Positions 19,041-64,000 of a DNA stretch of 64,000 bases are shown piece after piece. The notes under the pieces are model-generated. The model ran no database searches, was not told the DNA's origin, and saw only the letters and a list, made by a program, of their open reading frames with translations. The stretch's first letter is position 1, and each line of letters starts with the position of its first letter. A program made the translations under genes and the position numbers. The stretch is from Heterodontus francisci (taxonomy: Eukaryota): positions 20,653,543-20,717,542 of the forward strand of contig NC_090402.1 of assembly GCF_036365525.1 (NCBI RefSeq). The letters are read 5' to 3'.

Positions 19041-19394
19041 GTAAGGACCTGAAATCCCCTAAAAAAATAAAAAGAAGAAAGTTGAGTGTAAAAATCTATA
19101 TCTGGAGAAAGCAGATTGAGCTGAAAAGTTCTCTGAAATTTATGACCGGGCATTTTCAGACAAGGGCAAAGAAGCAGAGACGTACAAGACCTCTAAATTG
19201 AGTATAATCAAGTTTCATGCAACTGATATGGGAATTTTAAATTGGTCCTTGGCACAATCTGTTATTTTGTACTCCACTACTTTGTAGCTTCTTCAGTTTT
19301 GTGGTCACTGTTTTTGGAAAGTAGAGTTTTAAGATGCACAATGCAAGGCCAGATTGAATATCAGATTACCAGTTAGGGCGGTCAGAAATTGAGT

Positions 19395-19787
19395 GGCACC
19401 CCATTCACCACCTTAAACATTCACTCCATCCACCACTGGCACACTGTGACTGCAGAATGTACCACCTACAAGATGCACTGCAGCAACTTGACAAGGCTTC
19501 TCAGACCACACCTGCCAAACCCGTGATCTCTACCACCTAGAAGAACAAGGATAGCAGGTGCATGGGAACACCATCAACTGCAAGTTCTCTCCAAGTCACA
19601 CATCATTCAGACTTGGATGTATATTGCTGTTCCTTTGTCATCACTGGATCAAAATCGTGGAACTCCGCCCCTAACAGCACTGTGGGACTGCCTTCACCAC
19701 ATGGATTGCGGCAGTTCAAGAAGGCGGTTCACCACCTCCTTCTCAAGGGCCAGTGGGGATGGGCAATAAATGCTGGTCTTGCCAATA
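19395..19787 (+). mobile_element. 3' fragment of the tRNA-headed LINE family
   Basis: TACAAGATGCACTGCAGCAAC...GGGATGGGCAATAAATGCTGG, matching the reverse complement of 40860-41270. Confidence 0.85.
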
Positions 19788-20499
19788 TATACACACATAT
19801 AGAAAAGCCTTTTATAGCTCATCTCTGCAATGTTCCTACAGGGAAATGCGAGGGTAGGTAAAATACATCAAAGGAAATAAATTGGTAGATACAAAAAACA
19901 AATAGAAGCATGAGTATGAGAAGAAAGTACTGATAAAACCTACTAGTTAGCCTAATATAGTCATTTAAAATCATCTTCATAAATTGCTGAAATTAAAATA
20001 AATCTAAATATTCACAAATTAATAACCTCATTGCAAACATTCATCAACATCTGTTACAAAAACTACTAACACCGGGTATCGTTCTTGTGACCCGGCAGAA
20101 GATCGTAGCCATGATTGTTTGCATTTCTGAAATCCACATCAGGTCAAAAATGCCATATTGGTCATGCATCAGGTGTTCTGTTCTGAGCAAGATGTTAAAG
20201 GTATAATTCAAGAAAATAATTTATTGAAACATCTTTTTTCTGTAAACATTAATTTCACTTAAAGACAGCTTCACACATCAGAAGACAATCCTATTTTAAA
20301 CTTGGCAAACATAATTTATGTTAACATTTATTGCATTTTCCCTCTCTAGTCACCTGTCTCCATACTAATGACAGGCAAATTGCTCCTAAACACTTGCTAA
20401 TTATACCCTGTGGTGTCTGCTAAGGAGACTGGTTTGGCTTTATCCTGTGGGAAGCTGCTCAGTATAGCCCCAGTAGCACAGCTGAGATTGATTTGGTCT

Positions 20500-20695
20500 T
20501 TTAGGGAAGGAAATCTGCTGTCCTTACCTGGTCTGGCCTACATGTGACTCCAGACCCACAGCAATGTAGATGACTCTTAAAATGCCCTCTGAAATGGCCT
20601 AGCATGCTACTCAGTTGTCAATGGCAATTAGGGATGGGCAACAAATGCAGGCCTAGTCAGCGACGCTGATATCCCATGAAAGAATAAAAAACAAA
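20500..20695 (+). mobile_element. 5'-truncated tRNA-headed SINE
   Basis: Body AGGGAAGGAAATCTGCTGTCCTTACCTGGTCTGGCC joined to the LINE-type tail. Confidence 0.8.
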
Positions 20696-24469: not shown

Positions 24470-24817
24470 TTAGATTAGATTAGAGATACAGCACTGAAAC
24501 AGGCCCTTCGGCCCACCGAGTCTGTGCCGCACATCAACCACCCATTTATACTAATCTTACACTAATCCCATATTCCTACCAAACATCCCCACCTGTCCCT
24601 ATATTTCCCTACCACCTACCTATACTAGTGACAATTTATAATGGCCAATTTACCTATCAACCTGCAAGTCTTTTGGCTTGTGGGAGGAAACTGGAGCACC
24701 TGGAGAAAACCCACGCAGACACAGGGAGAACTTGCAAACTTCACACAGACAGTACCCGGAATCGAACCCGGGTCCCTGGAGCTGTGAGGCTGCGGTGCTA
24801 ACCACTGCACCGCACTG
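24470..24817 (-). mobile_element. V-SINE (HE1-like)
   Basis: tRNA head GTGCAGTGGTTAGCACC/GGTTCGATTCC; V-domain AGTTTGCAAGTTCTCCCTGTGTCTGCGTGGGTTT...GTTTCCTCCCACA; CR1-like tail GGGCCGAAGGGCCTGTTTC. Confidence 0.9.
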
Positions 24818-26994
24818 TTTACTTAGAAATGTAAAAACTATAGAATGTAGGAATTTAAAGTGGTGACTGAAATATGCCTGTGTATTAACTCCTAGCCTCA
24901 AATGCTGCTTCACCTCAAGATTACACTTGGTCTGTATCCTCCACATGCAACACTGGGGGAGATCGACCTAGTAATATATTTAAAATCGGAAATGTATTTG
25001 GTGCACTCGATTTGAGGATAAGTATTTAATGTTTTTTTTTGCATTTACACCTCACACTTCTAGGTGTCTCCTTGACACGGTTTCCCATTACAAAATGAGC
25101 AGCTGTGATCAGTCATAGGTCCCTGTCACCCAAAAAAGTTCAGGTGGATCAGTGAAGCTTCCGCAATGCCCAGCACAGCTGCTTCTGCCTCATTCAAGTG
25201 TTGAAAAACAATTATTTTTCCTTGTTTAGAGTTATTCAGTCTGACTTCAAGTAAGCGGGCAGGTAATTGGGTAAAGAAAATTCAAAAACAAAATCTGAAT
25301 TATTATTTTTAACCGCTTCATACTCTCCCTCCAGGAACAACCTACCCCCACCCCCGACACACACACACACCGCAGGCTGTCACTGCTCTCACTGGGCTTT
25401 CCACTAAGTACAAGCAAAATACTGCGGATGCTGGAAATCTGAAATAAAAACAAGAAATGCTGGAACCACTCAGCAGGTCTGGCAGCATCTGTGAAAAGAG
25501 AAGCAGAGTTAACGTTTCGGGTCAGTGGCCCTTCTTCGGAAGTACCCTTGGTGCCCCAGCGCCTGGCCCAATTCATACTCTGACCTTGCTACCAAATGGT
25601 GGCAAGGCACTGTATTACTCTTCACATCCCAGTCGAGGATCAACTCCACCCCCAGTCCGTCCGCCTAGAAATATTCAGAGCCACCCTATTAGCCCTCCTA
25701 TCCACAGCTTCTTGTGGGCTGCCTCTGTGGTTTGCTGTAGCCTGCACTCGAGTGACTTTAGTGGGAGCTTCACTCCAGCTTAGGCCTCTGTGTCTTACAG
25801 ATCCAATACACTACTTTAAAAGTTACTGATCTTCAGAGATTAGGACTGGAGAGCACTCATCACATCCACCGAGGGGGATACCGAGTTCCAGAATCAACTA
25901 CGAACATTTAACAAGACAAAAAACAAGTTGGTATAAATAATTAAAAGAAAACATTTCTTTGCAGCTCACTCGTTGAAAATAATTCCCACTTTATATGTCA
26001 GTTATTTTTGATCTGACCCACTCTTGTCAGAAAACTTCATCCGTGGCAGTACGCACATAATGGCAGTTATATACTCTCACATTTAGGACAAAGATTTACA
26101 GTATGGTCTTCGGATTACAGCTGCACACCAAATTTAAGCAGATAACGTTTCCATGACTCTTAATAGGAGTTACAATTACATTTATTGAACTATAAACACT
26201 GGCTACACTTGATCGGACTGTTTCTACATGTGATTGGTAGCAGTATTCATCCTAATATCTAGTGTCCAATGGACAGCTTGAGTTTATGACCTTTATTGAC
26301 AACGTCATAAAGAATACATTGGATTGAAGACTAAATCTTCAATTGAGACCGCCATGGTTTTACACTACCGTATTGGCAGGATATCCATTTCCATATCCAT
26401 CTCTTCTACACCCCATCTCAACTATTAAAATTATTTATTGGAATCAGTGCTTAAAACTTGACTCCCTAACTGAGCAATTTTGTGATTTATAGAGCCTTTC
26501 AATAAATGAATACTTCCATCCTATTGTTAGTTGAGAAATTACACAGATGAAAACCTGTTCTATGTAGAAATCACAAAAAATAATCACATTGAAAACTTTT
26601 ACTCTTCTATATAAAAAATACTGAGGCTATAATTGTTTCAAGCACCCGTATTTTGTTAACGTACACAGTTACTGGCAACTTCATTATACTTAAAACAGTG
26701 TAAGAAGTTTGGTCTTTTGTATACAAGAACTCCATCAGTACAAAATATCTGAAGGAACAAACTAGGAAAATGTTAAATATTAAACCTGGCCTCCATTTAT
26801 ATCCAGCTATTAGTGTGGAATTCTCTTGTTAGAACAGATACATGTTACAGCAGTATTTCTCAAACTTTTTTGATTTAAGGACACCTTTTCAAATGGATTA
26901 GTAAACATGAACCTCCCACCCCAATCTAAATTATAACACTATATACTTATAATATGAAAATGCTGCATGTAAAGTGTTTTAATAACACTTTTAA

Positions 26995-27450
26995 GACACC
27001 ATCCAGGACAAAGCAGCCCGCTTGATTGGCACCCCATCCTCAAACATTCACTCCCTCCACCACCGACACACAGTGGCAGAGTGTGTACCATCTACAAAAT
27101 GCACTGCAGCAATGCACCAAGGCTCCTTAGACAGCACCTTCCAAACCTGCGACCTCTACCAACTATAAGGACAAGGGCAGCAAATGCATGGGAACACCAC
27201 CATCTGCAAGTTCCCCTCCAAGTCGCACACCATCCTGACTTGGAACTATATCGCTGTTCCTTCACTGTCGCGGGGTCAAAATCCTGGAACTCCCTTCCTA
27301 ACAGCACTGGGGGTGTGCCTACCCCACATGGACTGCAGTGGTTCCAGAAGGCAGCTCACCACCACCTTCTCCAGGGCAATTAGGGACGGGCAATAAATGC
27401 TGGCCTGGTCAGCGACGCCCACATCCCATGAATGAATACAAAAAAAAAAT
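26995..27450 (+). mobile_element. Young 3' fragment of the tRNA-headed LINE family
   Basis: ORF CTIYKMHCSNAPRLLRQHLP; tail GGGCAATAAATGCTGGCC...ATGAATGAATACAAAAAAAAAA. Confidence 0.9.
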
Positions 27451-27495: not shown

Positions 27496-27835
27496 AGCAG
27501 CACAGTGGTGCAGTGGTTAGCACCGCAGCCTCACAGCTCCAGCAACCCGGGTTCAGTTCTGGGTACTGCCTGTGCGGAGTTTGCAAATTCTCCCTGTGAA
27601 GGCGTGGGTTTCTGCCGGGTGCTCTGGTTTCCTCCCACAGCCAAAGACTTGCAGGTTGATAGGTAAATTAGCCATTGTAAATTGACCCTAGAATAGGTAG
27701 GTGGTAGGAGAATGGTGGGGATGTGGTAGGGAATATGGGATTAATGTAGGATTAGTATAAATGGGTGGTTGTTAGTTGGCACAGACTTGGTGGGCCGAAG
27801 GGCCTGTTTCAGTGCTGTATCTCTCTATGATTCTA
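27496..27835 (+). mobile_element. V-SINE (HE1-like)
   Basis: Same head, V-domain and tail as 24470-24817. Confidence 0.9.
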
Positions 27836-28684: not shown

Positions 28685-29035
28685 CCACTTCTGCCACCAC
28701 TGGGGCTGCAGTGTGCACTTATACAATTGCAGGAACTCACTAAGGCTGCTTCGATAGCACTTCTCAAATCTGGAACCTCCACCACCTATAAGAACAAGGG
28801 GAGCAAGTGGATGGGAACAACACCATCCTGACTTGGACATTAATCACCATTCCTTCATCGTTACTGCATCAAAATCCTGTAATTCCCTACCCAAACAGCG
28901 TTTTGGAAACACCTTCACTACATGAACTGCACCGGTTCAAGGAGGCAGCTCCTTCTCAAGATGAACTAGGGGTGGGAAATAAATGCTGGCCTTGCTAGAG
29001 ATGTCAAGATCCCAAGAATTAATTTTTTTTTTTTA
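28685..29035 (+). mobile_element. Old 3' fragment of the tRNA-headed LINE family
   Basis: Degenerate match to 26995-27450. Confidence 0.7.
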
Positions 29036-35616: not shown

Positions 35617-37035
35617 TCAGCGGACATCAGGTACCTGATACAGCTTAGTGCAGGATGTCACATGACGATGGAAACTGTCTCGCCACATAAATTTCTTACC
35701 GCAGATGTGGCACTCGTACGGTTTAATGCCAGTGTGGATCTTCATATGGCCAACAAGATGGTGCTTCATTTTAAATTTCTTACCACAAACACCACAGCCG
35801 TAAGGCCGAAGACCAAGATGCATGCTCATATGCCGATCTCGCTGACTCTTGTGAGTAAAATTTTTGCCACATTGGCAAGGGTAAAGTTTGTAAACAACAG
35901 CTGTGAAGCCAGAGTGAGAGGTCTTTTCACTGACACCCAGTCCTAGCTCAGCTTCAACGCCATACCCTGGCAACCGATTCACCTGCATTTCAGCTGCTGT
36001 TAAAGGGTCCTGATGGTGTCCACTGACATTTATCTCCCCCCGGTCAGCTGAAAATTCATCCAGTGATGAACCATAGTAATCGACCTGTTCATCATAAGAA
36101 CTATGCTCGGGACCTTCTTTAAAGACCTCCTGTGTTTTGGCAGCAATATTAAAGCTGTCATCAATGCTGGAAGATTGTATTACTGGTTCTGCCTGAGTAA
36201 TATTTTCTGATTCAGAGACACGTTGCTCTTCGGTAGTAGAGCGTGTTGTTGCATTATCATAATCCTGTTCAAATTTTTCCTGTTTCACATACACCCACTG
36301 TTTGTGAGGCATTATACTGGGTTGACTATAGATTGGCCTGGTATACGAGTACTCCACACTATCACTTGCTCCTTCCTCACCATCCTGGCTGTTCAATTCT
36401 GCACTTAAATGATCATGCTCCCCGGAAGAATTGCTAGGAAGGTTGTCATTGTCCATTAATTGGGGCGGTGACATGTCATCCTCTTTGGGAGTCTCTTCGC
36501 CATTTTCATCAGCCTTTGAAACGTCATTCACACTTTTATAAAACTCAGGTTGCCCCACAGCTCCAAGTTCTGAAGGTTCTACTGAACCAATAAAATTGCT
36601 GCTGCTGGGTGACTGATGATCATTCAAATGATTAGACTTCTGATAATGAACTGCTGGGCACACCTTTAAAAGTTCTGTACACTTATCTACAACATGCCAC
36701 ATTTGAAGAAAGCTTGCCACTGTTAAGTAACTGACAATGTCAGTGGCTGGCAGTACAAGTTTTCCTGTGTAGCAAAACAACAAAACATTTTCAAATGCCT
36801 TTGGATTCATTACATCTGGTAGAAGGATTCGATTACTATTCTTCAGTAGTACCTGATCACAAAAATAAGGTGAAGTGGCAGCTAGGACAGCCCTATGGGC
36901 CCTGAATAATTGGCCCTGAACTTGAATAGCAATGTCACATAGCTGTCCCTCTTGACGCTGTTGGTTTAACTTCTGTAGTAGAGTATTTGTAAAATTCGGG
37001 AACTCCACACGAAAAAAATTAGTTGTTAGCTCCAT
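35617..37035 (-). CDS. ZBTB43: Zinc finger and BTB domain-containing protein 43 (472 aa from MELTTNF; in-frame ATGs also at 37038 and 37050)
   Basis: BTB domain (FRVEFPNF..LLQKLNQQRQEGQLCD...SPYFCDQVLLKNS...FLQMWHVVDKCTE) and C-terminal fingers YPCQCGKNFTHKSQRDRHMSMH, CGVCGKKFKMKHHLVGHMKIH, FMWRDSFHRHVTSC; linker (SQDGEEGASDS, YDEQVDYYGSS) matches ZBTB43 as recalled. Acceptor TTTTGAACAG| gives exon start 37053. Confidence 0.95.
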   Translation of the reverse strand: MELTTNFFRVEFPNFTNTLLQKLNQQRQEGQLCDIAIQVQGQLFRAHRAVLAATSPYFCDQVLLKNSNRILLPDVMNPKAFENVLLFCYTGKLVLPATDIVSYLTVASFLQMWHVVDKCTELLKVCPAVHYQKSNHLNDHQSPSSSNFIGSVEPSELGAVGQPEFYKSVNDVSKADENGEETPKEDDMSPPQLMDNDNLPSNSSGEHDHLSAELNSQDGEEGASDSVEYSYTRPIYSQPSIMPHKQWVYVKQEKFEQDYDNATTRSTTEEQRVSESENITQAEPVIQSSSIDDSFNIAAKTQEVFKEGPEHSSYDEQVDYYGSSLDEFSADRGEINVSGHHQDPLTAAEMQVNRLPGYGVEAELGLGVSEKTSHSGFTAVVYKLYPCQCGKNFTHKSQRDRHMSMHLGLRPYGCGVCGKKFKMKHHLVGHMKIHTGIKPYECHICGKKFMWRDSFHRHVTSCTKLYQVPDVR

Positions 37036-37337
37036 CATGGATGAAAGCATGTACTGTTCAAAACATAAGACAACAATTATGTTAAACATGATTTTGGAAA
37101 ATGCTAATGTAATGCATCATTGATAATCAAAACGTCATTGTGAAAAATGTATTCCTGTCTAAGCCTCAGAAACTAGTTGTTGAAATATACTATTTGCTGT
37201 CAAGCAAAACGGACATTTTGAAGTTCAGAAATAAAGCCTTACATTGTTACAAGCAAAATCAAATCTTTCTCCTAAGCTTTGAAGTCCATATTTGTCCAAC
37301 TTCCTCCCATTGCAACCATTTTAGTGATAGGAATGAT

Positions 37338-38172: not shown

Positions 38173-38249
38173 GATATGTGAAAGAAAGGACTCAATGAGA
38201 GGGGAAAAAGCAGAAATAAATTATATAACACAGTGATTATACTAAAAAG

Positions 38250-38582
38250 GGCAGCGCAGTGGTTAGCACCGCAGCCTCACAGCTCCAGCGACCTGGGTTG
38301 AATTCTGGGTACTGCCTGTGCCGAGTTTGCAAGTTCTCCCTGTGACTGCATGGGTTTTCGCCGGGTGCTCCGGTTTCCTCCCACAGCCAAAGACTTACAG
38401 GTTGATAGGTAAATTGGCCATTATAAATTGCCCCTAGTATAGGTAGGTGGTAGAAGAATTGTGGGGATGTGGTAGGAATATGGGATTAATGTAGGATTAG
38501 TATAAATGGGTGGTTGATGGTCGGCACAGACTTGGTGGGCCAAAGGGCCTGTTTCAGTGCTGTATCTCTAAATAAAAAAAAA
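38250..38582 (+). mobile_element. V-SINE (HE1-like)
   Basis: Head, V-domain and tail as in the other copies. Confidence 0.9.
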
Positions 38583-40832: not shown

Positions 40833-43800
40833 TTTTTTTATATATTCGTTCAGGGGATGTGGGTGTCGCTGGCTAGACCAGCATTTATTGCCCATCCCTA
40901 ATTGCCCTCGAGAAGGTGGTAGTGAGCTTCCTTCTTGAACCGCTGCAGTCCTTGGGGTGTTGGTACACCAACTGTGCTGTTAGGAAGGGAGTTCCAGGAT
41001 TTTGACCCAGCGACAGTGAAGGAACAGTGATATAGTTCCAAGTCAGGAATGATGTGTGGCTTGGAGGGGAATTTGTAGGTGATGTTCCCATGCATCTGCT
41101 GCCCTTGTTCGTCTAGGTAGTAGAGGTCACCAGTTTGGAAGGTACTGTCAAACGAGCCTTGGTGAGTTGCTGCAGTGCATCTTATTGATGGTACACATTG
41201 CTGCCACTGTGCGTCAGTGGTGAAGGGAGTGAATGTTGAAGGTGGTGCTTGGGGTGACAATCGAGCAGCTGCTTTGTCTTCAATGGTGTTCAGCTTCCTG
41301 TGTTGTTGGAGCTGCACCCATCCAGGCAAGTGGAGAGTATTACATCACACTCCTGACTTGTGCCTTGCAGATGGTGGACAAGCTTTGGGGAGTCAGGGGG
41401 CGAGTTACTCGCTGCAGAATTCCCAGGCTCTGACCTGCTCTTGAAGCTACAGCATTTATGTGGCTACTCCAGTTCAGTTTCTGGTCAATGGTAACCCCAG
41501 AATGTTGATAGTGGGGGATTCAGCGATGGTAATGCCATTGAACGTCAAGGGAAGATGGTTAGATTCTCTCTTGTTTGAGATGCTCATTGCCTAGCACTTG
41601 TGAGGCGCAAATGTTACTTGCCACTTATCAGCCCAAGCCTGGATATTGTCCAGGTCTTGCTGCATCTGGACACAGGCTGCTTCAGTATCTGAGGAGTTGC
41701 GAATGGTACTGAACACTGTGCAATCATCAGCAAGTGTCCCCACTTCTCATTTTATGATGGAGGGTAGGTCATTGATGAAACAGCTGAAGATGGTTGGGCC
41801 TAGGACACTACCCTGAGGATCTCCTGCAGTGATGTCCTGGTACTGAGATGATTGACCTTCAACAACTACAACCATCTTCCTTTGTGCTAGGCATGACTCC
41901 AACCAGCAGAGAGATTTCCCCCTAATTCCCATTGACTCCATTTTTTCTAGGGCTCTTTGATGCCATACTTGGTCAAATGCTGCCTTGGTGTCAAGGTCAG
42001 TCACTCTCACCTTACCTCTGGAGTTCAGCTCTTTTGTCCATATTTGGACCACGGCCGAAATCAGGTCAGGAGCTAAATGTTCCTGGTGGAACCCAAACTG
42101 AGCATCAGTGAGTAGGTTATTGCTAAGCAAGTGCCACTTGATAGCACTGTTGACGACCTCTTCCATCACTTTGCTGATGATCGGGTGTAGACTGATAGGG
42201 CAGTAAGCGGCCGGGTTGGATTTGTCCTGCTTTTTGTGCACAGGACATACCTGGGCAATTTTCCACATATATGGGTAGATGCCAGTATTGTAGCTGTACC
42301 AGAACAGCTTGGCTAGGGGCGAGGCTAGTTCTGGAGCACGTCTTCAGTGCTATTGCCAGAATGTTGTCGGGGCCCATAGCCTTTGCAGTATCCAATGCCT
42401 TCAGCCATTTCTTGATATCACATGGAGTGAATTGGATTGGCTGAAGACTGGCATCTGTGATGCTGGGGACCTCAGGAGGAGGCCGAGATAGACCATCCAC
42501 TCATCATTTCTGGCTGAAGATGGATGCAAATGTTTCAGTCTTGTCTTTTGCACTGATGTGCTGGACTTCCCCATTGTTGAGGATGAGGATGTTTGTGGAA
42601 CCTCCTCCTCCTCCTGTCAGTTGTTTAATTGCCCACCACTATTCACTACTGGATGTGGCAGGAATGCAGAGCTTAGATCTGATCTGTTGGTTGTGTGATC
42701 GCTTCGCCCTATCACATGCGGCTTTCGTTGTTTGTCAAGCAAGTAGTCCTGTGTTGTAGCTTCATCAGGCTGACGCCTCATTTTGAGGTATGCCTGGTGC
42801 TGCTCCTGGCTCCTGCTCGCCTGCACTCTTCATTGAACCAGGGTTGGGCCCCCCGACTTGATGGTAATGGTAGAGTGGGGGATATGCCAGGCCATAAGGT
42901 TACGGATTGTGGTTGAAAACAGCTTTGCTGCTGCTGACAGCCCACAGCGCCTCATGGATGCCAGTTTTGAGTTGCTAGATCTGTTCAAAATCGCTCCCAT
43001 TTAGCTCTGTAGTAGTGCCACACAACACGATGGTGGGTATCTCAGTGTGAAGATGGGACTTCGTCTCCACAAGGACTGTGCAGTGGTCACTCCTACCAAT
43101 ACTGTCATGGACAGATGCATCTGCAACAGGTAAATTGGTGCTGTACCACCTATCCTTCGTGGGAAAGTTTCTGCGGGAAAACACCTTTGACCACCAATTC
43201 ATCAGGCAGTGGTCTGTATGGAATGTCCTCAAAGCTCTAGGGGAAAAGGAGATGGTGGATCCAGTCGGATGGTTCCCCGAGCAGACTGCCAAAGAATGCC
43301 TCATCACCAGAACTTTCAAACAAGCACCAAGACGTTGCTTGGTTGGTGGTGAAAAGGGCCCTCCCAGTCAGATCCTTCCTGCACGCCCGGAATCTCGCCC
43401 TCTCCACGCACTGCCCTCGAGGTGGTTGCGGTGGGGAAGAGACAGTTGCCCATCTCCTTCTGGAATGTGTCTTTGCAAAGCAGGTGTGGAAAGAGATGCG
43501 GTGGTTTTTGTCGAGGTTCATCCCAACCAGCTCTGTAACACAGGAGTCTGTGCTCTATGGGCTGTTCCCAGGGACGCACACTGAGATAAACATCAACTGC
43601 TGCTGGAGGGCTATCAATTCGGTGAAAGACGCTCTTTGGTCTGCCCAAAACTTGCTGGTCTTCCAGCGCAAAGAGTTGCCCATGACTGAGTGTTGCACAC
43701 TGGCACGTTCCAAGGTCCAGGACTACATGCTGAGGGACACACTAAAGCTGGGGGCAGCTGCTTCAAAGGCTGAATGGGGAAAAACCTCTGTGTAAGGTCC

Positions 43801-45042
43801 CCCCACCAGTGAACTGAGGGGCTGGACCCATGGGAAACCCCTTGGGCTGTATACACCAAATATGGGTTTGCTGTAAAATGTACATGGCATGTAAAATGGA
43901 ATGGAAGGGTTGTGAGGCAACTCACTCCTGTATCGAAGAAAACTGATTTCCTTTGCACTTTTGGAATGTCAACTTGGTGCTGTTTTGAACTGTTTTGTAA
44001 TGCATTTTTACAGATTTTTATGAATAAAGTATATTTTTGGGAAAAAAAAAGTAAATTGGTGTGGACGAGGCCAAGTAGGTTTTTCCCTGTTGTTGGTTCT
44101 GTCACCATGCCACAGACCCAGTCTAGCAGCTATGTCCTTTAGGACTTAGCCAGCTCAGTCAGTCGTGGTTCTACTGAGCCACTCTTGGTGATGGACACTG
44201 AAGTCCCCCATCCAGAGTACGTTTTGTGCCCTTGCTACCCTCAGTGCTTCTTCCAATTGGTGTTCAACATGGAGAAGTACTGATTCATCAGCCGAAGGGG
44301 GGTGGGGGGGACAGTAGGTAGTATTCAGCAGCAGGTTTCCTTGCCCATGTTTGACCTGCTGCCATGAGACTTCATGGGGTCCGGAGTCAATATTGAGGAC
44401 TCCCAGAGCAACTCCATTCTGACTGTAGACCACTGTGCCGCCACCTCTGGTGGGTCCGTCCTGCCGGTGAGTCAGGACATATCCAGGGATGGTGATGGTG
44501 GTGTCTGGGACATTGTCTGCAAGGTATGATTCCGTGAGTATGACTATGTCAGGTTGTTGCTAGACCAATTTTGGCACAAGTTGTTAGTAAGTAGGACATC
44601 GCAGGGAAAACAGGGCTGGGTTTGCCATTGTCGTTTCCAGTGCCTAGGTCAATGCCAGGTGGTTCATCCGGTTCATTCCTTTTCTTGGACGTTGTAGTAG
44701 TTTGATACAACTGAGTGGCTTCCTAGGCCATTTCAGAGGACATTTTAAGAGTCAACTACATTGCTGTGGGTCTGGAGTCACATGTAGGCGAGACCAGGTA
44801 AGGACGGCAGATTTCCTTCCCTAAAGGACACGAGTGAACCAGATGGTTTTTATAACAGTCGACAATGGTTTTATGATCACCTCTAGACTAGCTTTTTTTT
44901 TTTGAATTCCAGATTTATTAAGTGAATTTAAATTCCACCATCTGCCGTGGTGTGATTCGGACCCATGTCCCCAGAGCATTAGCCTGGGGCTCTGGGTTAC
45001 TAGTCTAGTCTAATGACATTAACACTACGCCACCGCCTCCCC
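40833..45042 (-). mobile_element. Apparently full-length, decayed CR1/L2-group LINE with a tRNA-like 5' head and a single EN-RT frame (~3.3 kb excluding the Tx1 insert)
   Basis: Head ~44700-45042; APE motifs QPDIVILTESYL, RQDGPTRGGGTVVY, MGDFSVHH, SDHCTV; RT motifs YCPISL, QFGF, DTKAAFD, PQGSVLGP; polyA end at 40833. Confidence 0.9.
43141..44050 (+). mobile_element. Tx1/L1-clade LINE 3' fragment nested in the LINE
   Basis: C-terminal CCHC CPRGGCGGEETVAHLLLEC; AATAAA plus polyA; 11-bp TSD GTAAATTGGTG (43130-43140, 44051-44061). Confidence 0.9.
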
Positions 45043-47664: not shown

Positions 47665-50410
47665 ATGTTCCAGGCTTTAGAAGCTTCAGGCGGGATAGAG
47701 GGGGATGTAAAAGGGGTGGTGGAGTTGCATTACTGGTTAAGGAGAATATCACAGCTGTACTGCGGGAGGACACCTCAGAGAGGTCATGCAGCGAGGCAAT
47801 ATGGGTGGAGCTCAGGAATAGGAAGGGTGCAGTCACGATGTTGGGGGTTTACTACAGGCCTCCCAACAGCCAGTGGGAGGTAGAGGATCAGATATGTAGA
47901 CAGATTTTGGAAAGATGTAAAGGTAACAGGGTTGCAGTGGTGGGTGATTTTAACTTCCCCAATATTGACTGGGACTCACTTAGTGCTAGGGGCTTGGATG
48001 GGGCAGAATTTGTGAGGAGCATCCAGGAGGGCTTCTTGAAACAGTATGCAGATAGTCCAACTAGGGATGGGGCCATTCTGGACCTGGTATTGGGGAATGA
48101 GCCCGGCCAGGTGGTCGAAGTTTCAGTGGGGGAGCATTTCGGGAGCAGTGACCATAATTCCATAAGTTTTAAGGTACTTGTGGATAAGGATAAGAGTAGT
48201 CCTCGGGTGAAGGTGCTAAATTGGGGGAAGGCTAATTATAACAATATTAGGCAGGAACTGAAGAATTTAGATTGGGGGCGGCTGTTTGAGGGTAAATCAA
48301 CATCTGACATGTGGGAGTCTTTCAAACGTCAGCTGATTAGAATCCAGGACCAGCATGTCCCTGTGAGGAAGAAAGACAAGTTTGGCAAGTTTCGGGAAGC
48401 TTGGATAACACGGGATATTGTGAGCCTAGTCAAAACGAAAAAGGAAGCATTTGTAAGGGCTGGAAGGCTAGGAACAGATGAAGCACTTGAGGAATATAAA
48501 GACAGTAGGAAGGAACTTAAGCAAGGAGTTAGGAGGGCTAAAAGGGGTCATGAAAAGTCATTGGCAAACAGGATTAAGGAAAATCCCAAGGCTTTTTATA
48601 CATATATAAAGAGCAAGAGGGTAACCAGGGAAAGGGTTGGTCCACTCAAGGACAGAGATGGGAATCTGCGTGGAGCCAGAGGAAATGGGTGAGGTGCTAA
48701 ATGAGTACTTTGCATCAGTATTCAGCAAGGAGAAGGACAGTGGATGATGAGCCTAGGGAAGGGAGTGCAGATAGTCTCAGTCATCTCATTATCAAAAAGG
48801 AGGAGATGTTGGGTGTCTTGCAAAGCATTAAGGTAGGTAAGTCCCCAGGGCCTGATGGGATCTACCCTAGAATACTGAGGGAGGCAAGGGAAGAAATTGC
48901 TGGGGCCTTGACAGAAATCTTTGCATCCTCATTGGCTACAGGTGAGGTCCCAGAGGACTGGAGAATAGCCAATGTTGTTCCTTTGTTTAAGAAGGATGGT
49001 AAGGATAATCCAGGAAATTATAGGCCGGTGAGCCTTATGTCAGTGGTAGGGAAACTATTAGAGAGGATTCTTCGGGACAGGATTTACTCCCATTTGGAAA
49101 CAAACGAACTTATTAGCGAGAGACAGCATGGTTTTGTGAAGGGGAAGTTGTGTCTTACTAATTTGATTGAGTTTTTTGAGGAAATGACAAAGATGATTGA
49201 TGAGGGAAGAGCGGTGGATGTTGTCTATATGGACTTTAGTAAAGCCTTTGACAAGGTCCCGCATGACAGAGTGGTGCAAAAGGTGCACACGGGACCAGAG
49301 GTGAGCTGGCAAGATGGATACAGAACTGGCTCAGTCACAGAAGACAGAGGGTAACAGTGGATGGGTGTTTTTCTGAATGGAGGGATGTGACTAGTGGTGT
49401 TCCGCAGGGATCAGTGCTGTGACCTTTGCCGTTTGTAGTATATATAAATGATTTGGAGGAAAATGTAGCTGGTCTGATTAGTAAGTTTGCGGACGACACA
49501 AAGGTTGGTGGAGTTGCGGATAATGATGAGGATTGTCAGAGGATACAGCAGGATATAGATCGGTTGGAGACTTGGGCGGAGAAATGGCAGATGGAGTTTA
49601 ATCCAGACAAATGTGAGGTAATGCATTTTGGAAGGTCTAATGCAGGTGGGAGGTATACAGTAAATGGCAGAACCGTTAGGAGTATTGACAGGCAGAGAGA
49701 TCTGGGCGTACAGGTCCACAGGTCACTGAAAGTGGCAACGCAGGTGGATAAGGTAGTCAAGAAGGCATACGGCATGCTTGCCTTCATTGGTCGGGGCATA
49801 GAGTATAAAAATTGGCAAGTCATGTTGCAGCTGTACAGAACCTTAGTTAGGCCACACTTAGAATATTGCGTGCAATTCTGGTCGCCACACTACCAGAAGG
49901 ACGTGGAGGCTTTGGAGAGGGTACAGAGGAGGTTTACCAGGATGTTGCCTGGCCTGGAGGGCATTAGCTATGAGGAGAAGTTGGAAAAACTCGGATTGTT
50001 TTCACTGGAATGACGGAGGTGGAGGGGCGACATGATAGAGGTTTACAAAGTTATGAGCGACATGGACAGAGTGGATAGTCAGAAGCTTTTTCCCAGAGTG
50101 GAAGAGTCAGTTACTAGGGGACATAGGTTTAAGGTGCGAGGGGCAAAAGTTTAGAGGGGATGTGCGAGGCAAGTTTTTTTTACACAGAGGGTGGTGAGTG
50201 CCTGGAACTTGCTGCCAGGAGAGGTGGTGGAAGCAGATACGATAGCGACATTTAAGAGACATCTTGACAAATATATGAATAGGAAGGGAATAGAGGGATA
50301 TGGGCCCCGGAAGTGCAGAAGGTGTTAGTTTCGGCAGGCATCAAGATCGGCGCAGGCTTGGAGGGCCGAATGGCCTGTTCCTGTGCTGTACTGTTCTTTG
50401 TTGTTCTTTG
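47665..50410 (+). mobile_element. Young 5'-truncated CR1 (HER1-like) LINE ORF2, EN and RT, with frameshifts and stops; inserted in an older CR1
   Basis: GVYYRPP, VGDFNFP, SDHNSI, GNYRPVSL, QHGF, YMDFSKAFDKV, KFADDTK; tail GGGCCGAATGGCCTGTTCCTGTGCTGTACTGTTCT. Confidence 0.95.
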
Positions 50411-51524: not shown

Positions 51525-51870
51525 TCATAGTCATAGAGAGATACAGCACCGAAACAGGCCCTTCGGCCCACCGAGTCCGCGCCATCCATCAACCATCAAT
51601 TTATACTAATCCTACATTAATCCCAATTTTTCCCCTCTCACATCCCCACCTTCCTTCAATTCTCCTACCACCTACCTACACTAGGGGCAATTTTTACACT
51701 GGCCAATTTACCTATCAACCCACAAGTCTTTGGCATGTGGGAGGAAACCGGAGCACCCAGAGGAAACCCATGCGGTCACAGGGAGAACTTGCAAACTCCG
51801 CACAGGCAGTACCCAGAACCGAACCCGGGTCGCTGGAGGTGAGGCTGCGGTGCTAGCTACTGCACCGCCC
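51525..51870 (-). mobile_element. V-SINE (HE1-like) inside the Harbinger element
   Basis: Reverse complement of the V-SINE head, V-domain and tail. Confidence 0.9.
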
Positions 51871-52392
51871 TGACAGATGCATGGTTGCAACTTGGCCACA
51901 AGCCACCTTCTTTCACATACCACCCTCATAACAGCCCTGAAAGCGGATGGGAGCATGAGCTATATAGGGTATGAGGACCTAACACTATGTTGATCTCTCT
52001 GTGAAATATGACTATCTCCCCCTTTCCACTTGCAGGACAAGAGCGCCCATAAGAGGAGGGAGACAGCCCAGACTGATGGAGACGTCCCAGATCTTGGGCC
52101 TCTCTCCACAGCAAACGAAGACACATTAGAATTGACAGGGAGCTAGGGCAGCCGCTCCATATCAGAAATCAGATACTAGAGTTTCCATGCAAGAGAGAGG
52201 ATTGGCTTCCACTGACATACAGTTCACTTCTGGAGACCCACATCATGTAAGGTTGGCATGACGAGATCGTAGCCTAATACACACGTTTGTGTTCCTCATG
52301 TAGGTAGGCGTCTGCAGGAGACTCAACCAGAAGTGGAGCAGTTGTCCACCTCTGAGGAGGAGCAGCACTCAGAGGATGCACCATCTCATGAC

Positions 52393-52600
52393 CGGGTGCT
52401 CCGGTTTCCTCCCACATCCAAAGACTTGCAGGTGATAGGTAAATCGGCCATTGTAAATTGCCCCTAGTGTAGGGAGGTGATAGGGAATATGGGATTACTG
52501 TAGGGTTAGTATAAATGGGTGGTTGTTGGTCGGCACAGACTCGGTGGGCCGAAGGGCCTGTTGCAGTGCTGTATTTCTAAATAAATAAAAAATAAAATAA
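52393..52600 (+). mobile_element. 5'-truncated V-SINE inside the Harbinger element
   Basis: CCGGGTGCTCCGGTTTCCTCCCACA...GGGCCGAAGGGCCTG followed by an A-rich tail. Confidence 0.85.
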
Positions 52601-53689
52601 ATGACTCTCCTGCATCTTCCACTCAGTGAGATTCCTCTCGGCTGCAGAATCAGGGTCACAAGCTGGTGGGAGAACCGCACACTGCTCAAACAGCTAGCTG
52701 AGGCAGGGAGAACTGTGCGTGGCCAGGCCCATGATCAGCCTTTGGTGTCGACAGCACAGGGCATGCTAGAATTGGGGAGAGAGGTGAGGCAACATATGGC
52801 AGAGATGCCAGAGTCAATGCACAGTCATGAACGGACAATGGAAGAGTCCATTCATGACATGAGTGCTGCCATGTCTGAGGCATTGAGCGCATGGCTTCCT
52901 CCATTGAAAGGTTGGCAACCCTCACGGACAGCCAGATCACACAAATGTGTGGAGATCTGCACATCATTGCCTTGGCCATGAGCTCCAAGCAGCAGTGGGA
53001 AGGTGAGAGAAGGACAAGGCGCTTATAGAGTCTTCTCCAGCTCCTCGAACTTCTCTGGTGAGCAGGGAGGTTCAAGTGAGCCTTGAAAGGGAGGAACAGA
53101 GGCTGATCTCTGCAGTTGGGAACTCCCCTCAGGGCGCTCCGAGTGTGAACACTGGCTCCTTGGCACCTCCACCAGTGAGTCCAGCTCCAGCGGCCGCAAA
53201 GCCTGAGGAGAGTCCTGCATCAGTGCAGGAAATCCTCAGGCAGCCAGGGCCCTCCAGGCCTCAGGCAGCCAGAGGACTGCTGCCAAAGTCATCACAGGCC
53301 AAGTTCCTGCCTCCAGCCCAGCTGTTAGTTATGTGTTCACATCTCGCAGAAGCATTTGTAAACATATAAAAAAAGAACACCTAGACAGACATGGGGGGTT
53401 CTCGGATGTTTGAAATTTGTCATGCTGCATCATATAAAGTTCTTTTGTTCAAGACATTACCCTTCATTGTGTACAAGTGAATATTCCATCATCCTTAATT
53501 GTGAGCTGCTGACTTCAGCCTTCTCCCTAAATGGAATGCCAATGTAGGCACAGCCCTCATTTAAATAGGCTCTCCCATGGGCACAAGTGTGTTGTTCAGC
53601 TGGGCGCTAGGCACAGAATGCAAATACAAAGGAAGCGACAGACTGCTTGCATTGAGGTGGGTCTTTATTGGTTTTTCTCTGAATGGCCA

Positions 53690-54800
53690 TCAGGGTGGCT
53701 GGAAATGACCAAATATGAGATTGTCTCTTGCCTCCTTGGCCTGTCGCTCAATCTGACTGGCCTCTGGTGTGAGGGCTTCAACATCCAGTGCTGTTTGCTC
53801 AACTCCCTCTTCCACACCCTCCTTGTCGTTGGAGGAGTATCGCTCAGTTATGTCTTTTTGATGCAAGACCACCCCCTCTGCAGTGCTAGGTTGTGCAGAG
53901 CACAGCAGACCACAACAATATGCGATACACTCGCTGGGTCAGACTGTAGGGCTCCACGTGATCGATCTAGGCAACGGAATCTCATCTTCTGCAGCTCAAT
54001 GGCCTGATCGATGGTCGCCCGGGTGGAGCTGTGGCAGTGTTGTATCTCTCCTCTGCTGCATTATGAGGGTTCCTCATGGTTGTCAGTAGCTAAGTCTTCA
54101 ACGGGTCCCCCCCGCCCCCAAAAATCCATCCCTGAAGGTGAGCAGGAGGCCTGAAAAGCTGTGGCACCTGGGACTGTCAAAGTATGTAGGCGTCATGGCT
54201 GCTTCTTGAGAAGCGGGTACACACCTGCAGGAAACGCTTTCAGTGGTTGCAGACCACTTGAATGTTGATTGAATGGAAGCCCTTCCTGTTGATGAAGGCG
54301 GCTGGCTGGTCCGTTGGAACCTCGAGGGCCACATGCATACAATCTATCAGATCTTGCACCTAGGGAAATACAGTGATGGCCCCGAATCCGATGGTCTGCT
54401 CATCTTCACTGTCTGGTTCGGTCCAGTAATGCACATTGTTGCTGGCCCTCTTTAACAGGGCATTGAGCATATCCTTAACACAGCGGTGGGCTGTGCCCCC
54501 AAACATTCCCAATGAATCCTTGGAATGATCCAGACTCATAAAGGTTTAGTGCCACTGTAATCTTCAGGGCCACTGGCATAGGGTGACCCCCCCCCCAAAT
54601 CCCATGGGTCGCAACGCGTCCTGCTCCAGGGCGCACAAGTCGGTGACGACCTCCCTGGAGCGGCATAGTCTCCACCGACAATGCCACTCGTACATTTGGA
54701 GGTAGCTGATTCACGTCCGGTACACTCTCTGGCAAAGGTGGGCCCTTCTTGGCATGCCTGGCTGCTTCTGCTCTCGTCGTGGATCTTTACGGGCAGGCAC
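53690..54800 (-). pseudogene. Harbinger (HARBI1-like) DDE transposase remnant
   Basis: ALKITVALNLYESGSFQ; IDCMHVAL...FINRKGFHSINIQVVCNH*...SSHDAYIL*; KMRFRCLDRS...IVVVCCALHNLA. Stops and frameshifts present. Confidence 0.88.
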
Positions 54801-57379
54801 ATGTGCCTTTTGGCAGTCCCTCCGTTGAGGCGTTACATCATGTCACAGGGGTCCAAAAATATTGGGTGTATGAGACCCATGCCAGGTTTCCAGCGGGTCA
54901 ACGGACCGCTGCTGATGCAGAGACAACCCTGCCTTGGCCACTGAGCTTTTGCTACTTCTCCCGGCAGACTTCCTGATGGCCCTCGGTGTCCACCCTTGCT
55001 GATAGCTGACCCTCTCATCCAGAACTACGGGCAACCCAATTATCTCACCCAACAGTTTGATCACCCGATACAGTCATCCAAACCCAAGCCTCCACCTTTG
55101 CAGAGCACCTGAGACCTTGACCCCCCCTGCCCCTTGCAGAGCACCCGAGAACCCGACCCCACTTGCAGAGCTCCTGAGAACCTGCACTGCAGGCCAACAA
55201 TGCCCTCTGCACCCCCCACAACAACCCCCTAACCCTATGCAGTGCTGGGCATGCCTGGCTACCCATCACGAAACTGAAGCCTTGCTTTGGCACCTCCAGC
55301 TTTTAACTGTCGGGAATCCAAAGGCATGCCGTCCACTTAATCCCAAGCCCCCCATGAACTGCAATGAATTAGATGCAAATGTATTAAAATTAATTGCTCA
55401 GCAATTTAAAATACATTTGTCACATTGCAGTGGTGATTCCACCTTGGTGCTTTACCACCACTGACTAAATCCAGAACCGGTGTCATGGCCCCGGATTTTC
55501 CGGTAGATACTTCCAAAACGATTCTCCATCCCCCCATACCACCATTCCCGCTGCAAATGGCCCACTAAATTCAGCCCATGGTTCCCAAAGTTTTCCATTG
55601 CTGGGGTTTTTCTTGTGTCATGTCTGGGTCTGTTGTAGATTAATTGGTAGAGATTATGTAGGGGAGACTGGCATAGGGAACCATGGGATACTTGGCTTAA
55701 TTTAGGTCCCTGTAACTTGAGAGAGCTTTCCTGCTAGACACACGAATTATATGAATACCTAATCAGAAGGTTGACAAGGTGAATAATATAACCAAGGGAG
55801 GATCAGATTAGGGAAGACAGTAGGTGGAAGATGAGGTAATTGAAGAAACAGTTTATCAAATAAACCTCCAATAAACTGTATAAAATGACTGCTCAAACAT
55901 TGTTCCAGCAAAACCCCTACAATCATTCGTGAGTAGGACTTCTCCTTGCATGCTCGTAAATAAAGATCGCTCATTTGTACAAGACGTCCAACCCTCAAGG
56001 TGTTGTTGGGTACCAGGGCAAGCCCTCACCCTTACAATTACCATAATTAGTCAACAACTCCATTATTATTGTATCATGTGACTACTAGGATAGTAGAAGG
56101 AGAACTAGGTGGAACTTGGTCTTTTTTCATCTAGTAATTCCTCTGTTCCAATTTTAGCTGCCTTCAGAAGGTGGTGGTGGGCTCTCTTCTGATAATTAAC
56201 ATACACTTTTGGGAACAGGGATTTACCATATTAATTAAGCAGAACGTTAATATGGTTTCAGAATAAAATGTACACAGACTTTACAATTAAGTTGCCCTTC
56301 AATTCAATTCACTTTTCAGGAATTAAATTTCAATTGTCATTATTTAAAAAGATAACTTTATAAACCTCTAACTATAGAGCTAAATGGAGTTTAAACTGAA
56401 AACATCTGGATAAAGCAGAAGACCACAAAAATTGTTAGGCTGCGGTACTTGGAGAATGCAATTAAAGTTCTGAAATTAACACTCTGCATCAGGATTTTAC
56501 AGCACAGTGATAGTCAGTCCTAGCCTTTTACATTACAGTGATCGTCATTCCTAGCCTTGCTCTTGATTCCAAATGATTCAGTATCAACGATCAGAATATA
56601 ACTACACCATAATTTCAACTATATTGTCCTTCACTCTTAATTTATGCAGCTTAATAATGGGCAAAGTTTTTCCTGTGTTCAGTATAGCGTAATTGTAAAT
56701 CTTTTCTTTATAAATGAAAATCTTTCACTGATGTGTTTTAAATCAAATCTACAACTTGCTGAATCTAAAGATTGCTGTTGTATGACTGAAATGTAAAGTG
56801 TTCGGTTAATAACATGGCAAAATGTCATTAAACAATATTGAGACATATTTAATAAGACTTAATATTGATGCAGATGAATGACTAATTGAAAATAAATTTG
56901 TGGAAGTGCGTTCTATATAGAATATACAATATTACTAGATAATTTCTCAAAACACAACACCAACAAAAGATATTTTACAATTAAAATGTATTACATCCTC
57001 ATGAAATATGTAATAGAAAACTCTGAAAGTTAGCTATTTGGGGGATGACTTATCAGGAAACTGTGAACAGGTATTTCATTGCAAAATCTCCGTATTCAAG
57101 ATGAAACTGAATTTGCTAAATATAATACAAGGTGATATTCTTACATTTTGTAATCTAGGCACTGCAAGCTTTTGAAAACAACCTACTTCTAAAATGCAAA
57201 ACTTTAGCTGCAAAAATCAAAATTCAACATTTAGATCTTCCTACCATTTTGAATAATAATTTTAAGTTAGCAGATTTGTGGAACAGAAATTTATTTGTGG
57301 GTTTATGCTTATGATTTGCAGATAAGCAAATTAGATTAGGAATCAAATGACAAATCAATGTCCAAACATTATCGAGTCA

Positions 57380-57705
57380 TTGGTTAGCACCGCAGCCTCA
57401 CAGCTCCAGCGACCCGGGTTGGGTTCTGGGTACTGCCTGTTGGGAGTTTGCAAGTTCTCCCTGTGACTGCGTGGGTTTCTGCCGGGTGCTCCAGTTTCCT
57501 CCCACAGCCAAAGACTTGCAGGTTGATAGGTAAATTGGCCATTGTAAATTGCCCCTAGTGTAGGTAGGTGGTAGGAGAATTGAGGGAAGGTGGGGATGTG
57601 ATAGGGAACATGGGATTAATGTAGGATTAGTATAAATGGGTGGTTGATGGTCGGCACAGACTCGATGGGCCTGTTTCAGTGTTATATCTCTCTATGACTC
57701 TCTAT
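57380..57705 (+). mobile_element. V-SINE (HE1-like), followed by a CR1 tail (-, ~57705-57958)
   Basis: Head, V-domain and tail match the other copies. Confidence 0.85.
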
Positions 57706-61227: not shown

Positions 61228-64000
61228 TGTTACAACCGACTGCTCAAGATAAAGCCCTCAATCAAAATATATGATTCTGATGGTGGTGGGAGAAACACAC
61301 CGTTGATTCAGTTCCACCCCTCCACAGATCGCCTAACATATAATTTTAAACTTTCCAAATGAAAGAAAACCACAGCCAAATTGACCATCTATTAACCATT
61401 CATGCTGGTCCGGCTGTCTGTCTGTGTCTGTTAATAGTGTCTCAAAAGCCAGTTTTTTAGCTAGTTTCAAATGCCAATCGACAGTACTGTATCTTTGTCC
61501 TTGTACTCCGAATAACTGTATCCTACGGCAACGAGAATGCATTCTTTGACTCAATCCCTGGAGCTTGCTGCCTTAAAGCAGTACTGATCCTTTTCCAGCC
61601 TTAAAGGCACACTGTATACTTCCCAGAAAAGAAAAAACAAAATACAGGATCATAACACATTCCACCCCCCCCCCCCCCCCACCACCCCGGCGGAATGAAA
61701 TGCCATTCCTGAAATATGTTTCATTACAATGTGTAAAAAATACAATTTGAAAAAAACCGCTAACACATTTTTTCCCGCATTTACAGATATACAGTCTTGT
61801 AAAATGTTAAGATTACAGCAACAAGTTCCATCAGAACATTTTCAGCTTTAAATTTTCAAATTAACCCATTTCAAATTTCCAAGCATAGTCTTCCAGTTGT
61901 TTTGTGTTTTCCTTCCAAGTGTCCCTATTGTCCATCACCTCAGCCAGGGGAACTGCACAGCTAGGAGCACTGACCACTACTGGGTTCACTATTCTCTGAG
62001 AAATTTCTCGAGTACCCCTTAACCTATGTGGCATCACTTGATATTGGGAAACCCTGTCCGGTGTAACATAAGCTGACTTTTTCTTACCCTGGGGTGTCAA
62101 AGGAATTTGACAGTATCCCTCCAACACATCTGTCTCTTTAAGACACATGGTGTTCCCCACTCTGTCCATACAGTCCTTTAAATGAGAATTTGGGTAGGAG
62201 TCTGCCTTCTTTACTGCACTGACTTTTCTACAGTCTATGCAAGTTTGAGCCGTCCCACCAGGTTTAGACATCAAGACCATCAGCGAATTCCAGCTGTCCT
62301 GACTAGGTTCAACTAAGTTGCCCTTCAGCATGCATTGTACCTCTGCTCCCCCTATACCCACATCATGTGTGGCTAAGGTTGTACATCCTAGCTTATCCCT
62401 ACAAATGTTTTGAAATGTTGTGAAAACCCTGGTTAGGTTTTCATGTTGTTTTGCCTCCAAGTGCAAAAGCTTATTGTTTAATTTTTCTAACCATTCCGTA
62501 TTCGCTAATCTGACAGTTGGAGGTTCAATATGAGAATTTCTTCGGCCTGTTTCTGCCTCATCCTCACTATCCTTTTCTTTCTCAACAGTCCCGATTACCT
62601 GGCATACCTGTACTGGTTTATCCTCCTCCCTGCGGTAATATTGTTTGAGCAAATTAATGTGACACAACCGGTTCTTCTTCCGGCGATCAGGGGTGTCAAT
62701 CAAGTAATCTACCTTACCCACTCTTTTGATCACTCTATATGGGCCACTGAACTCTGCTTTTAATGGTTCTCCCTGTAATGGTAACAACACTAATACTTCA
62801 TCCCCTGATTTTATGGTAGGTTGTGGTTTTCCTACCATTTGACAGGTATGGCATGTCCTACAAAATTGTCTCACATCGTTTACAAGACCTGGCCAGTAAT
62901 AATGTTGGCTTATGTGTGATTAGGTGTTCCGAATTCCCCTATGTCCTGCAAAAGGAATGTGTGCTAACCTTAATAATCCTTGTCGATATTTAGGTGGTAC
63001 CACTATCTGCTCAACAACTGTCCAGTCTTCATTGGCAGGTCTATGAGCCGATCTCCATTTCCTCCTCAAAACACCTTTTGTCATACAATAGCCTTATGGA
63101 ACTCCTTTCGCATCAGCTTCTGACAGAGCTGTCTGTGCTATTTGGTATATCTCTGCAACAGCTTGCTGTGCTGCAATGACAGATGATCTGTTAAACATCT
63201 CATTTGGATTTTCAAAATCCCCAGATAAGGTTTCAGATACTTGGCTATCTATTTGTGGTGCCCCTTTTACCCCCGCCAATGGATCCTGATAAGCCATTGC
63301 TCGGGTAACTACACACGCAGGAAATATTAATTTCACTCGGTTCCTCTGTAACTATAGGAGAAACTGATACTTTTGATCCAGCCAAATCATTTCCTAGGAG
63401 TAAATCAATTCCCTTTACTGGCAAACTGTGGATAACACCTACAGTTATTATCCCAGATATTAAGTTACTCTCTAAGCATACTTTATACAAAGGTATGGGT
63501 ACATTCTCCCCGCCAATTCCATTAACTAAAACTTTAAGTGTTCAAGGTGCTCTCTGGTGGAAACGTTATATCTTTCCCCAGCAAGAGAGTTTGGGTTGCT
63601 TCTGTGTCCCAGAGTATAATGATAGGTTTTCCTGCCTCACTTACAGGATACAAAGTTACTCTCCCCTTTGACAAAAATTCATTATAACTCTCAGGTATTT
63701 TATTCTTAACCTCTGCACTCCTTTCAGTCTTAGTATCTGGTTTCACAGCTGTCGTTAAAGCTATAGCCTGGTCTGCTATACTCTCAGTCAGAGTTTTTTC
63801 CTTTGCACTAACTTTGCGTACCCCAACAAGTCCTATGGGTTTACCTCGCAATTTCCGGCACTCTGAACGAAGATGACCCGTTTTTTTTTCAATGATAACA
63901 CTTCAGCTTGCGAACCTCACTTCTGCACTCAGCAATTTTCTTTATGGCCTGAGGAGGCCTGGGGCATTCCCAAATGTTCCTCCTTGTCCCCAGCTACTTG
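61228..64000 (-). mobile_element. Gmr1-like Ty3/Gypsy LTR retrotransposon (3' LTR 61228-61657, PPT ~61658-61690, decayed gag-PR-IN-RT), continuing beyond the window
   Basis: Gag knuckle remnant (GHLRSECRK ~63850-63900); protease IILWDTEATQTLL; IN HHCC (YYWPGLVNDVRQFCRTCHTCQ); GPY module; then RT motifs (IDCRKV, DSYP, YCQIPL). IN lies before RT. Confidence 0.9.

Follow-up and report, generated by a model that had tools for sequence, protein, structure and literature searches.

A tRNA-headed Zenon LINE in the shark Heterodontus francisci with a coding strand depleted of RNA polymerase III terminators

Zenon elements, their short relatives, and the copy in the window

Retrotransposons are usually divided into LINEs, which are transcribed by polymerase II (Pol II) and coding, and SINEs, which are transcribed by polymerase III (Pol III) and noncoding (Kojima 2018, PMC5786205); what we say of this and the other papers cited holds for the parts of each source that were drawn on. 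The elasmobranch Zenon elements (CarCar, RhiTyp, ScyCan, HypSab, and SquAca; Stuart et al. 2026, PMC13343379) are LINEs of 3.2 to 3.3 kb that lack an ORF1, encode endonuclease and reverse transcriptase, and end in an A tail, and the name "CR1-Zenon like" is found in bioRxiv 10.1101/443036. Among SINEs, the Deu-SINEs SacSINE1 and LmeSINE1 join a tRNA head, a Deu body, and a LINE-type tail (PMC5499810), while in T+ SINEs (B2, Dip, and Ves) an AATAAA precedes the end and T-runs lengthen at the cost of short A tails (PMC8466645). Persaeus, a SIDE derived from a lepidopteran Zenon (PMC6740152), and the bipartite LINE derivatives (PMC5786205) are short elements in which the 5' end of a LINE is joined to its 3' end. 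Three further papers (PMC7245038, PMC11481361, and PMC10572872) were compared in part.

The window analyzed here is a stretch of 64,000 nucleotides from the shark Heterodontus francisci. Judged by its sequence, the minus-strand copy that it holds at positions 40833 to 45042 is a dead copy of an elasmobranch Zenon LINE (Table 1), with the same size, the same two enzymatic domains, and the same lack of an ORF1 as the published elements. Identity to these rests on 400-nt 5' ends compared by eye, over which the published consensuses match the shark family with no sequence difference (PMC13343379). All seven elasmobranch Zenon rows viewed in that source begin with the tRNA-type head and show no T4 in 400 nt by eye, whereas the coelacanth and hagfish rows are without the head and contain T4+ runs over the same length. 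The terms tRNA, promoter, polymerase III, and start codon are all missing from the main text of PMC13343379, so that the head, the avoidance of terminators, and the missing ATG are left undiscussed there. The family is a known one with an undescribed architecture, and the feature is real.

Table 1. Parts of the Zenon copy and of the sequence nested in it (window coordinates)
Feature	Position	Strand	Remarks
Whole Zenon LINE copy, old subfamily	40833..45042	-	Stops, frameshifts, nested insert; 3.3 kb minus insert
tRNA-type head	44951..45042	-	Start point of full-length family copies
A box	45022..45032	-	Final base altered in window copy
B box	44953..44963	-	Two bases altered in window copy
Deu-type body (SacSINE1/Deu type), common to short SINE copies	44705..44950	-	
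Hairpin with 7-nt anticodon-like loop CUAGCAA and downstream GCUA, in ORF frame	44695..44736	-	Putative AUG-free start
Single endonuclease and reverse transcriptase frame, split by insert	40898..44698	-	975 open codons in consensus
Nested 3' piece of a Tx1-type LINE (A tail; 11-bp target duplication)	43141..44050	+	Not part of Zenon element
T4 run, post-insertion	42916..42919	-	
T4 run, post-insertion	42987..42990	-	CpG decay beside TTT
T4 run, post-insertion	44607..44610	-	
3' UTR, common to SINE copies, short A tail	40833..40897	-	AATAAA at 40884-40889

In the window copy, which is old and dead, both boxes are altered, and the hairpin loop and the codon have one change each; the architecture was read from family consensuses. 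A consensus of 58 pieces has one frame that stays open, preceded by about 330 nt alone, and a 945-aa Zenon copy contains the Pfam domains RVT_1 and Exo_endo_phos. What we take to be the A-box and B-box motifs are both matched by all three subfamily consensuses, and the head of a young copy gave a weak Rfam tRNA-clan match, at 17.6 bits and E 1.2. The body is presumably of Deu type, a name that follows PMC5499810. An A run of at least 4 lies near the end in 91 of 97 family 3' ends. The nested Tx1 fragment, which has a zf-RVT match, is missing from other Zenon copies.

Each of the described systems shares part of this design. At the 5' end of the shark element are the A and B boxes of tRNA-derived SINEs (SINE2), which are short and noncoding, whereas the shark element has 3.3 kb and a long selected frame. 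Deu-SINEs have the same order of head, body, and tail in about 400 nt of noncoding sequence, but the shark element holds a selected frame of 2.9 kb between body and tail (PMC5499810). The T+ SINEs (PMC8466645) are noncoding; as in these, the shark element has AATAAA before the end and, at some ends, T-runs grown at the cost of the A tail, but a single T stands where the shark consensus meets its tail. Persaeus is without a Pol III promoter (PMC6740152), whereas in the shark case the parent LINE itself bears the head. The short SINE copies in the window share the first approximately 320 nt and the tail of the Zenon element and join body to tail at differing points, all before the GCUA triplet, and these varied joints fit repeated internal deletion of the LINE. 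SacSINE1-type SINEs thus look like internal deletions of the Zenon element; the available text of Luchetti 2017 links the SacSINE1 tail to L2-2_CM and describes no headed LINE (PMC5499810).

Copies, head, and reading frame

The family is present in high copy number, with 18378 and 42201 first-look candidates for the two halves of the element, 40 of which were scored per half. All 22 full-length alignments (21 distinct copies) begin at consensus position 1 to 6, at the head, and finish in a short A tail. In a sample picked by the endonuclease profile only, 21 of 30 loci belonged to the Zenon family; of these 21, 12 extend to the head, one of them across a deletion; the other nine, two of which are near-identical, end at scattered points between 199 and 622. 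No alternative common 5' end was found among 32 truncated copies.

The 129 pieces collected include three age classes, old, middle, and young (29, 55, and 22 pieces), whose medians lie 7.6, 4.3, and 1.8% from their own consensus, with some intermediate or very diverged pieces left outside the classes. The old and young consensuses differ at 183 sites, and between them the frame has a pN/pS of 0.13 (25 CpG-type codons skipped); the frame is under purifying selection. Across 41 copies, alleles of the head covary with alleles of the frame (rho 0.91), and ten head changes all fall outside the boxes (P 0.055). Because the frame is selected, head and frame covary, and the boxes are unchanged between the consensuses, the headed form is the autonomous lineage.

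Among relatives, most of the close Zenon ones were compared as proteins. In a tree of 103 unnamed homologues, which included no named Zenon protein, the shark element falls in a short single-frame clade, and no relatives were found among viral contigs. As outside controls, 64 of 80 metagenome loci were used, the other 16 being left out for want of a 350-aa open frame; the short single-frame clade is the best match for two of the 64 only. The head had no match in the 80 metagenome loci, nor did the B box in the 64, of which 39 have at least 300 nt upstream.

Scarcity of T-runs on the coding strand

The initial annotation had reported, outside the Tx1 insert, three plus-strand A4 runs (T4 on the coding strand; Table 1), no A5 or longer run, and about 17 T4+ runs, together with no T4 in the copy at 22085-23290 and about 11 T4+ runs in the CR1 at 47665-50410; our recount agrees throughout and gives exactly three, 17, and 11. 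Two of the three runs had been called post-insertion mutations; in fact all three are missing from the family consensus, and the run at 42987 can be derived from it through CpG decay. The sense strands of the old, middle, and young consensuses (3.3 kb) contain no T4 at all, and so none of the conserved T5 runs that the annotation had named as counterevidence, and they hold 6 to 7 TTT against 13 to 16 A4+, 12 to 13 C4+, and 8 to 9 G4+ runs. In same-genome control consensuses, built by majority vote with the same procedure, we counted 12 T4 in 3732 nt of CR1, 10 in 2423 nt of Tx1, and 6 in 2391 nt of a second CR1, and a host ZBTB exon has 12. The 64 metagenome LINE frames carry 1.2 to 15.9 T4 per kb.

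By the initial annotation's own criterion, a T4 frequency inside the null for base composition and amino acid content would refute the proposal, and under the synonymous nulls T4 alone does fall inside it. The count lies below the order-0 null (4.5 expected, P 0.008), but it falls within the order-1 null (1.7, P 0.18), a synonymous shuffle (2.1, P 0.08), and a CpG-aware synonymous shuffle (1.05, P 0.31), so that as proof on its own it was rejected as underpowered and inside the strictest nulls. Since CpG decay makes the plain shuffle overstate TTT (12.8 expected in place of 10.2), the CpG-aware shuffle was used, and against it TTT is scarce in the frame (4 observed, 10.2 expected, P 0.0012). 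At third positions with a T/C choice where T would create TTT, T is used in 1 of 35 cases, whereas isolated sites have it in 82 of 247 (P 5e-5); in the CR1 control the same test gave 40 of 65 and 81 of 146. Windows with T at four of five positions number two in 3288 nt of the shark element, 65 in CR1, 45 in Tx1, 40 in the second CR1, and one in a 345-nt tRNA SINE.

This last result came from a first look, after which we adopted a set of active terminators (T4+, TVT3, T3VT, T2AT2, and T2CT2) from Orioli 2011 (PMC3141230), where strengths were determined for human Pol III in human extracts, not for shark; there, TVT3, T3VT, T2AT2, and T2CT2 partly terminate, and an isolated TTT or a T2GT2 has almost no activity. 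The sense strand of the shark element has none of these active terminators, the antisense strand 29 to 34. Expected numbers are 4.2 under the CpG-aware synonymous shuffle (P 0.0048), 6.6 under a third-base null (P 0.0004), 6.2 under order-1 (P 0.0025), 12.3 under order-0 (0 of 2000), and 3.1 under order-2 (P 0.048). The motifs that remain are two TTGTT and the 6 to 7 isolated TTT, at or above the Markov-null expectation, and no depletion of the A, C, or G analogue motifs was found in the consensus. The metagenome frames have 4.7 to 29 active sites per kb. Active sites also rise with copy age, from 0.31 to 0.70 and 1.71 per kb. TT dinucleotides stand at 0.69 of expectation, which accounts for much of the signal. 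Host mutation is approximately strand symmetric, with post-insertion C>T beside T about as frequent as G>A beside A, and substitutions between the old and young consensuses have no significant T-neighbor bias in gains or losses of T (P 0.41 and 0.58).

The best-matched control is L321, a Zenon-like frame that is 35% identical, has 20% T and 2.2% Phe, and starts at an ATG; its upstream sequence is 39 nt only, and its 3' UTR has a T5 and a T6. Its frame has one T4, and T is used at 8 of 52 TTT-making third positions against 75 of 206 elsewhere (P 0.004), a partial avoidance from which it follows that part of the scarcity of T-runs arises without evidence of Pol III. In a direct comparison at TTT-making third positions, the shark element and L321 differ with a P of 0.078. 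The shark element is the extreme of this scarcity.

Transcription and translation of source elements

The avoidance of terminators on the coding strand is real, T-specific, and strand-specific. It fits the selection for Pol III read-through proposed in the initial annotation, as support and not as proof: the specificity of the avoidance and the sparing of inactive motifs speak for that proposal, while the weakness of T4 taken alone and the partial likeness of L321 speak against it. Our results lead us to think that source elements are probably transcribed end to end by Pol III from the head. Pol III would start at the head or one base before it, where 19 of the 28 copies have an A at -1. Any T-run in the 3.3 kb that halts the polymerase would be lost from source elements through selection, which would explain why active terminators are gone while inactive T motifs persist. 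Termination may take place in a T-run of the flank or in one that has arisen where the A tail begins. At the tail junction, about 45 nt past AATAAA, 17 of 91 ends have T4+ and 45 have one T; T3+ occurs at the junction in none of nine old ends. Junction T-runs as inherited terminators were rejected, as the combined length of T and A stays at about 10 to 11 and fits post-insertion growth, and, this being a known post-insertion process (PMC8466645), such growth was excluded as support.

An unlikely rival is a Pol II transcript, made from the head region, from the CpG-rich stretch after the head, or by host read-through, in which U-runs are avoided for some other Zenon-wide reason at the RNA level (A-tail pairing, decay signals, or cryptic processing) and the head is a captured SINE with another use. 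In favor of this, LINEs are treated as units of Pol II (PMC5786205), an AATAAA precedes the tail by about 45 nt, and L321 partly avoids TT and TTT despite its normal ATG. L321 nevertheless keeps 8 active terminators, at its null level of 9.4, and control L121 has 36 T4, whereas the shark element spares just those motifs reported to be inactive for Pol III; moreover, every subfamily keeps intact A and B boxes, and the truncated copies point to no other common 5' end. More improbable still would be the absence of any selection on terminators, with the scarcity of T-runs a by-product of a T-poor and Phe-poor protein, of CpG and TpG effects, and of a lineage-specific mutation bias of the reverse transcriptase against TT. 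T does make up only 20% of the shark element, Phe at 1.8% is the lowest of 103 proteins, the TT deficit, the T4 count within synonymous nulls, and the order-2 value all lean the same way, yet P is still 0.0025 to 0.005 under nulls that preserve either the amino acids, codon usage, and CpG context together or the TT frequency, and mutation by the host after insertion is approximately symmetric.

It is highly improbable that the form of 3.3 kb with a head is a passenger, transcribed by Pol III in the manner of a long SINE and mobilized by the enzyme of a separate, conventionally translated Pol II master. In favor of this, poor translation would be expected of uncapped RNA, and the form has no in-frame ATG before the endonuclease; the frame, however, is under constraint in the very lineage whose head alleles covary with it, and copies picked by their endonuclease alone reach the head in 12 of 21 cases, with the rest ending at scattered points and not at another 5' end.

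Transcription by Pol III would leave the question of how the frame is translated. No in-frame ATG precedes the endonuclease in the consensus, the first being at consensus position 916 in young copies, and the first 360 nt contain ten ATGs that are out of frame or open short frames only; an in-frame ATG in the old consensus was rejected as an alignment artifact of small deletions. Uncapped RNA would need a cap-free and AUG-free start, for which the hairpin that ends the Deu-type body is a speculative candidate. In the intergenic IRES of dicistroviruses, an AUG-free frame is directly preceded by a codon-like triplet that pairs with an anticodon-like loop, a layout that the shark loop and triplet may resemble. 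By fold and frame in the consensuses, UAGC of the loop is able to pair with the downstream GCUA, over 4 bp only, and the triplet, which 21 of 23 copies have in frame, lies 99 nt before the start of the endonuclease. Its frame is kept by eye in the published consensuses of four of five species, the dogfish rows being the exception (PMC13343379). In contigs from four sequencing runs, the positions of hairpin and triplet vary little beside variable neighbors, except for CpG decay at the G of the triplet and a loop change that reaches 29% in one run. No compensatory change was seen in the pairing of loop and triplet, the fold of the first 361 nt has a z of -2.0, which is not decisive, and, compared with the viral IRES, the shark element shows one small hairpin and its 4-bp pairing, the larger domains not being found. 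We can only speculate that the anticodon-like hairpin may start translation. The wider joint reading, in which SacSINE1-type SINEs would be deletion derivatives and the long-conserved Deu domain the relic of a translation element, is rather doubtful as a whole.

No description of the head or of the avoidance of terminators, no autonomous LINE made by Pol III, and no natural precedent for a translated 3.3-kb Pol III RNA were found in the literature, a search whose scope ran short of subscription journals and Repbase reports. If transcription by Pol III is true, a natural coding retrotransposon of 3.3 kb, cleared of Pol III terminators throughout a long-lived lineage, would violate the rule that separates LINEs from SINEs and would offer an mRNA made by Pol III whose translation could be tested. 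It would also give an origin and a function to the conserved body of Deu-SINEs, a question that PMC5499810, in the part drawn on here, leaves open.

SINEs with Zenon ends, and Zenon fragments

Four short SINEs in the window join the head and body of the Zenon LINE to its tail, and the junction between head/body and tail differs in each copy. The tRNA-Ser that ARAGORN called at 1015-1088 is the head of one of these short SINEs. Some of the five further fragments of the Zenon LINE family are inverted or inserted one inside another.

Features of the window (window coordinates unless marked consensus)
Feature	Position	Strand
Short SINE, Zenon LINE head/body + tail	992-1393	+
Same	15495-15871	+
Same	20496-20695	+
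Same	21669-22083	-
Zenon LINE family fragment	11446-12870	
Same	19391-19784	
Same	20690-23276	
Same	26996-27448	
Same	28728-29023	
Second tRNA-headed SINE	24480-24821	
Same	27502-27834	
Same	38243-38571	
Same	51529-51872	
Same	52392-52592	
Same	57378-57701	
499-codon exon, BTB + C2H2 zinc-finger host gene (ZBTB-type)	35617-37116	-
46-codon ATG frame, out of frame with main ORF	consensus 353-493; about 44540-44676	-
Broken reading frames	about 53300-54500	-
LTR retrotransposon frame, integrase zinc-binding + SH3 domains	61861-62919	-

Other elements and a short overlapping frame

The second tRNA-headed SINE family has a unit of ~340 nt, and its consensus, as in the Zenon LINE, contains no T4 runs. 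The broken reading frames putatively resemble a PIF/Harbinger transposase. The 46-codon frame overlaps the beginning of the Zenon main frame, and its ATG occurs also in the published Zenon consensuses where these are visible (PMC13343379).

Zenon family 3' ends and the control contig

The Zenon-like control L321 (1-3099), a eukaryotic LINE contig, lies within a bacterial metagenome-assembled genome, where host contamination likely explains its presence. Zenon family 3' ends, such as those of copies L236, L237, and L259, take the form T(n)A(m) with n+m of ~10-11, and T length peaks at T5 (10 of 91 ends), as if T were taking the place of A and the tails were heading toward a palindrome.
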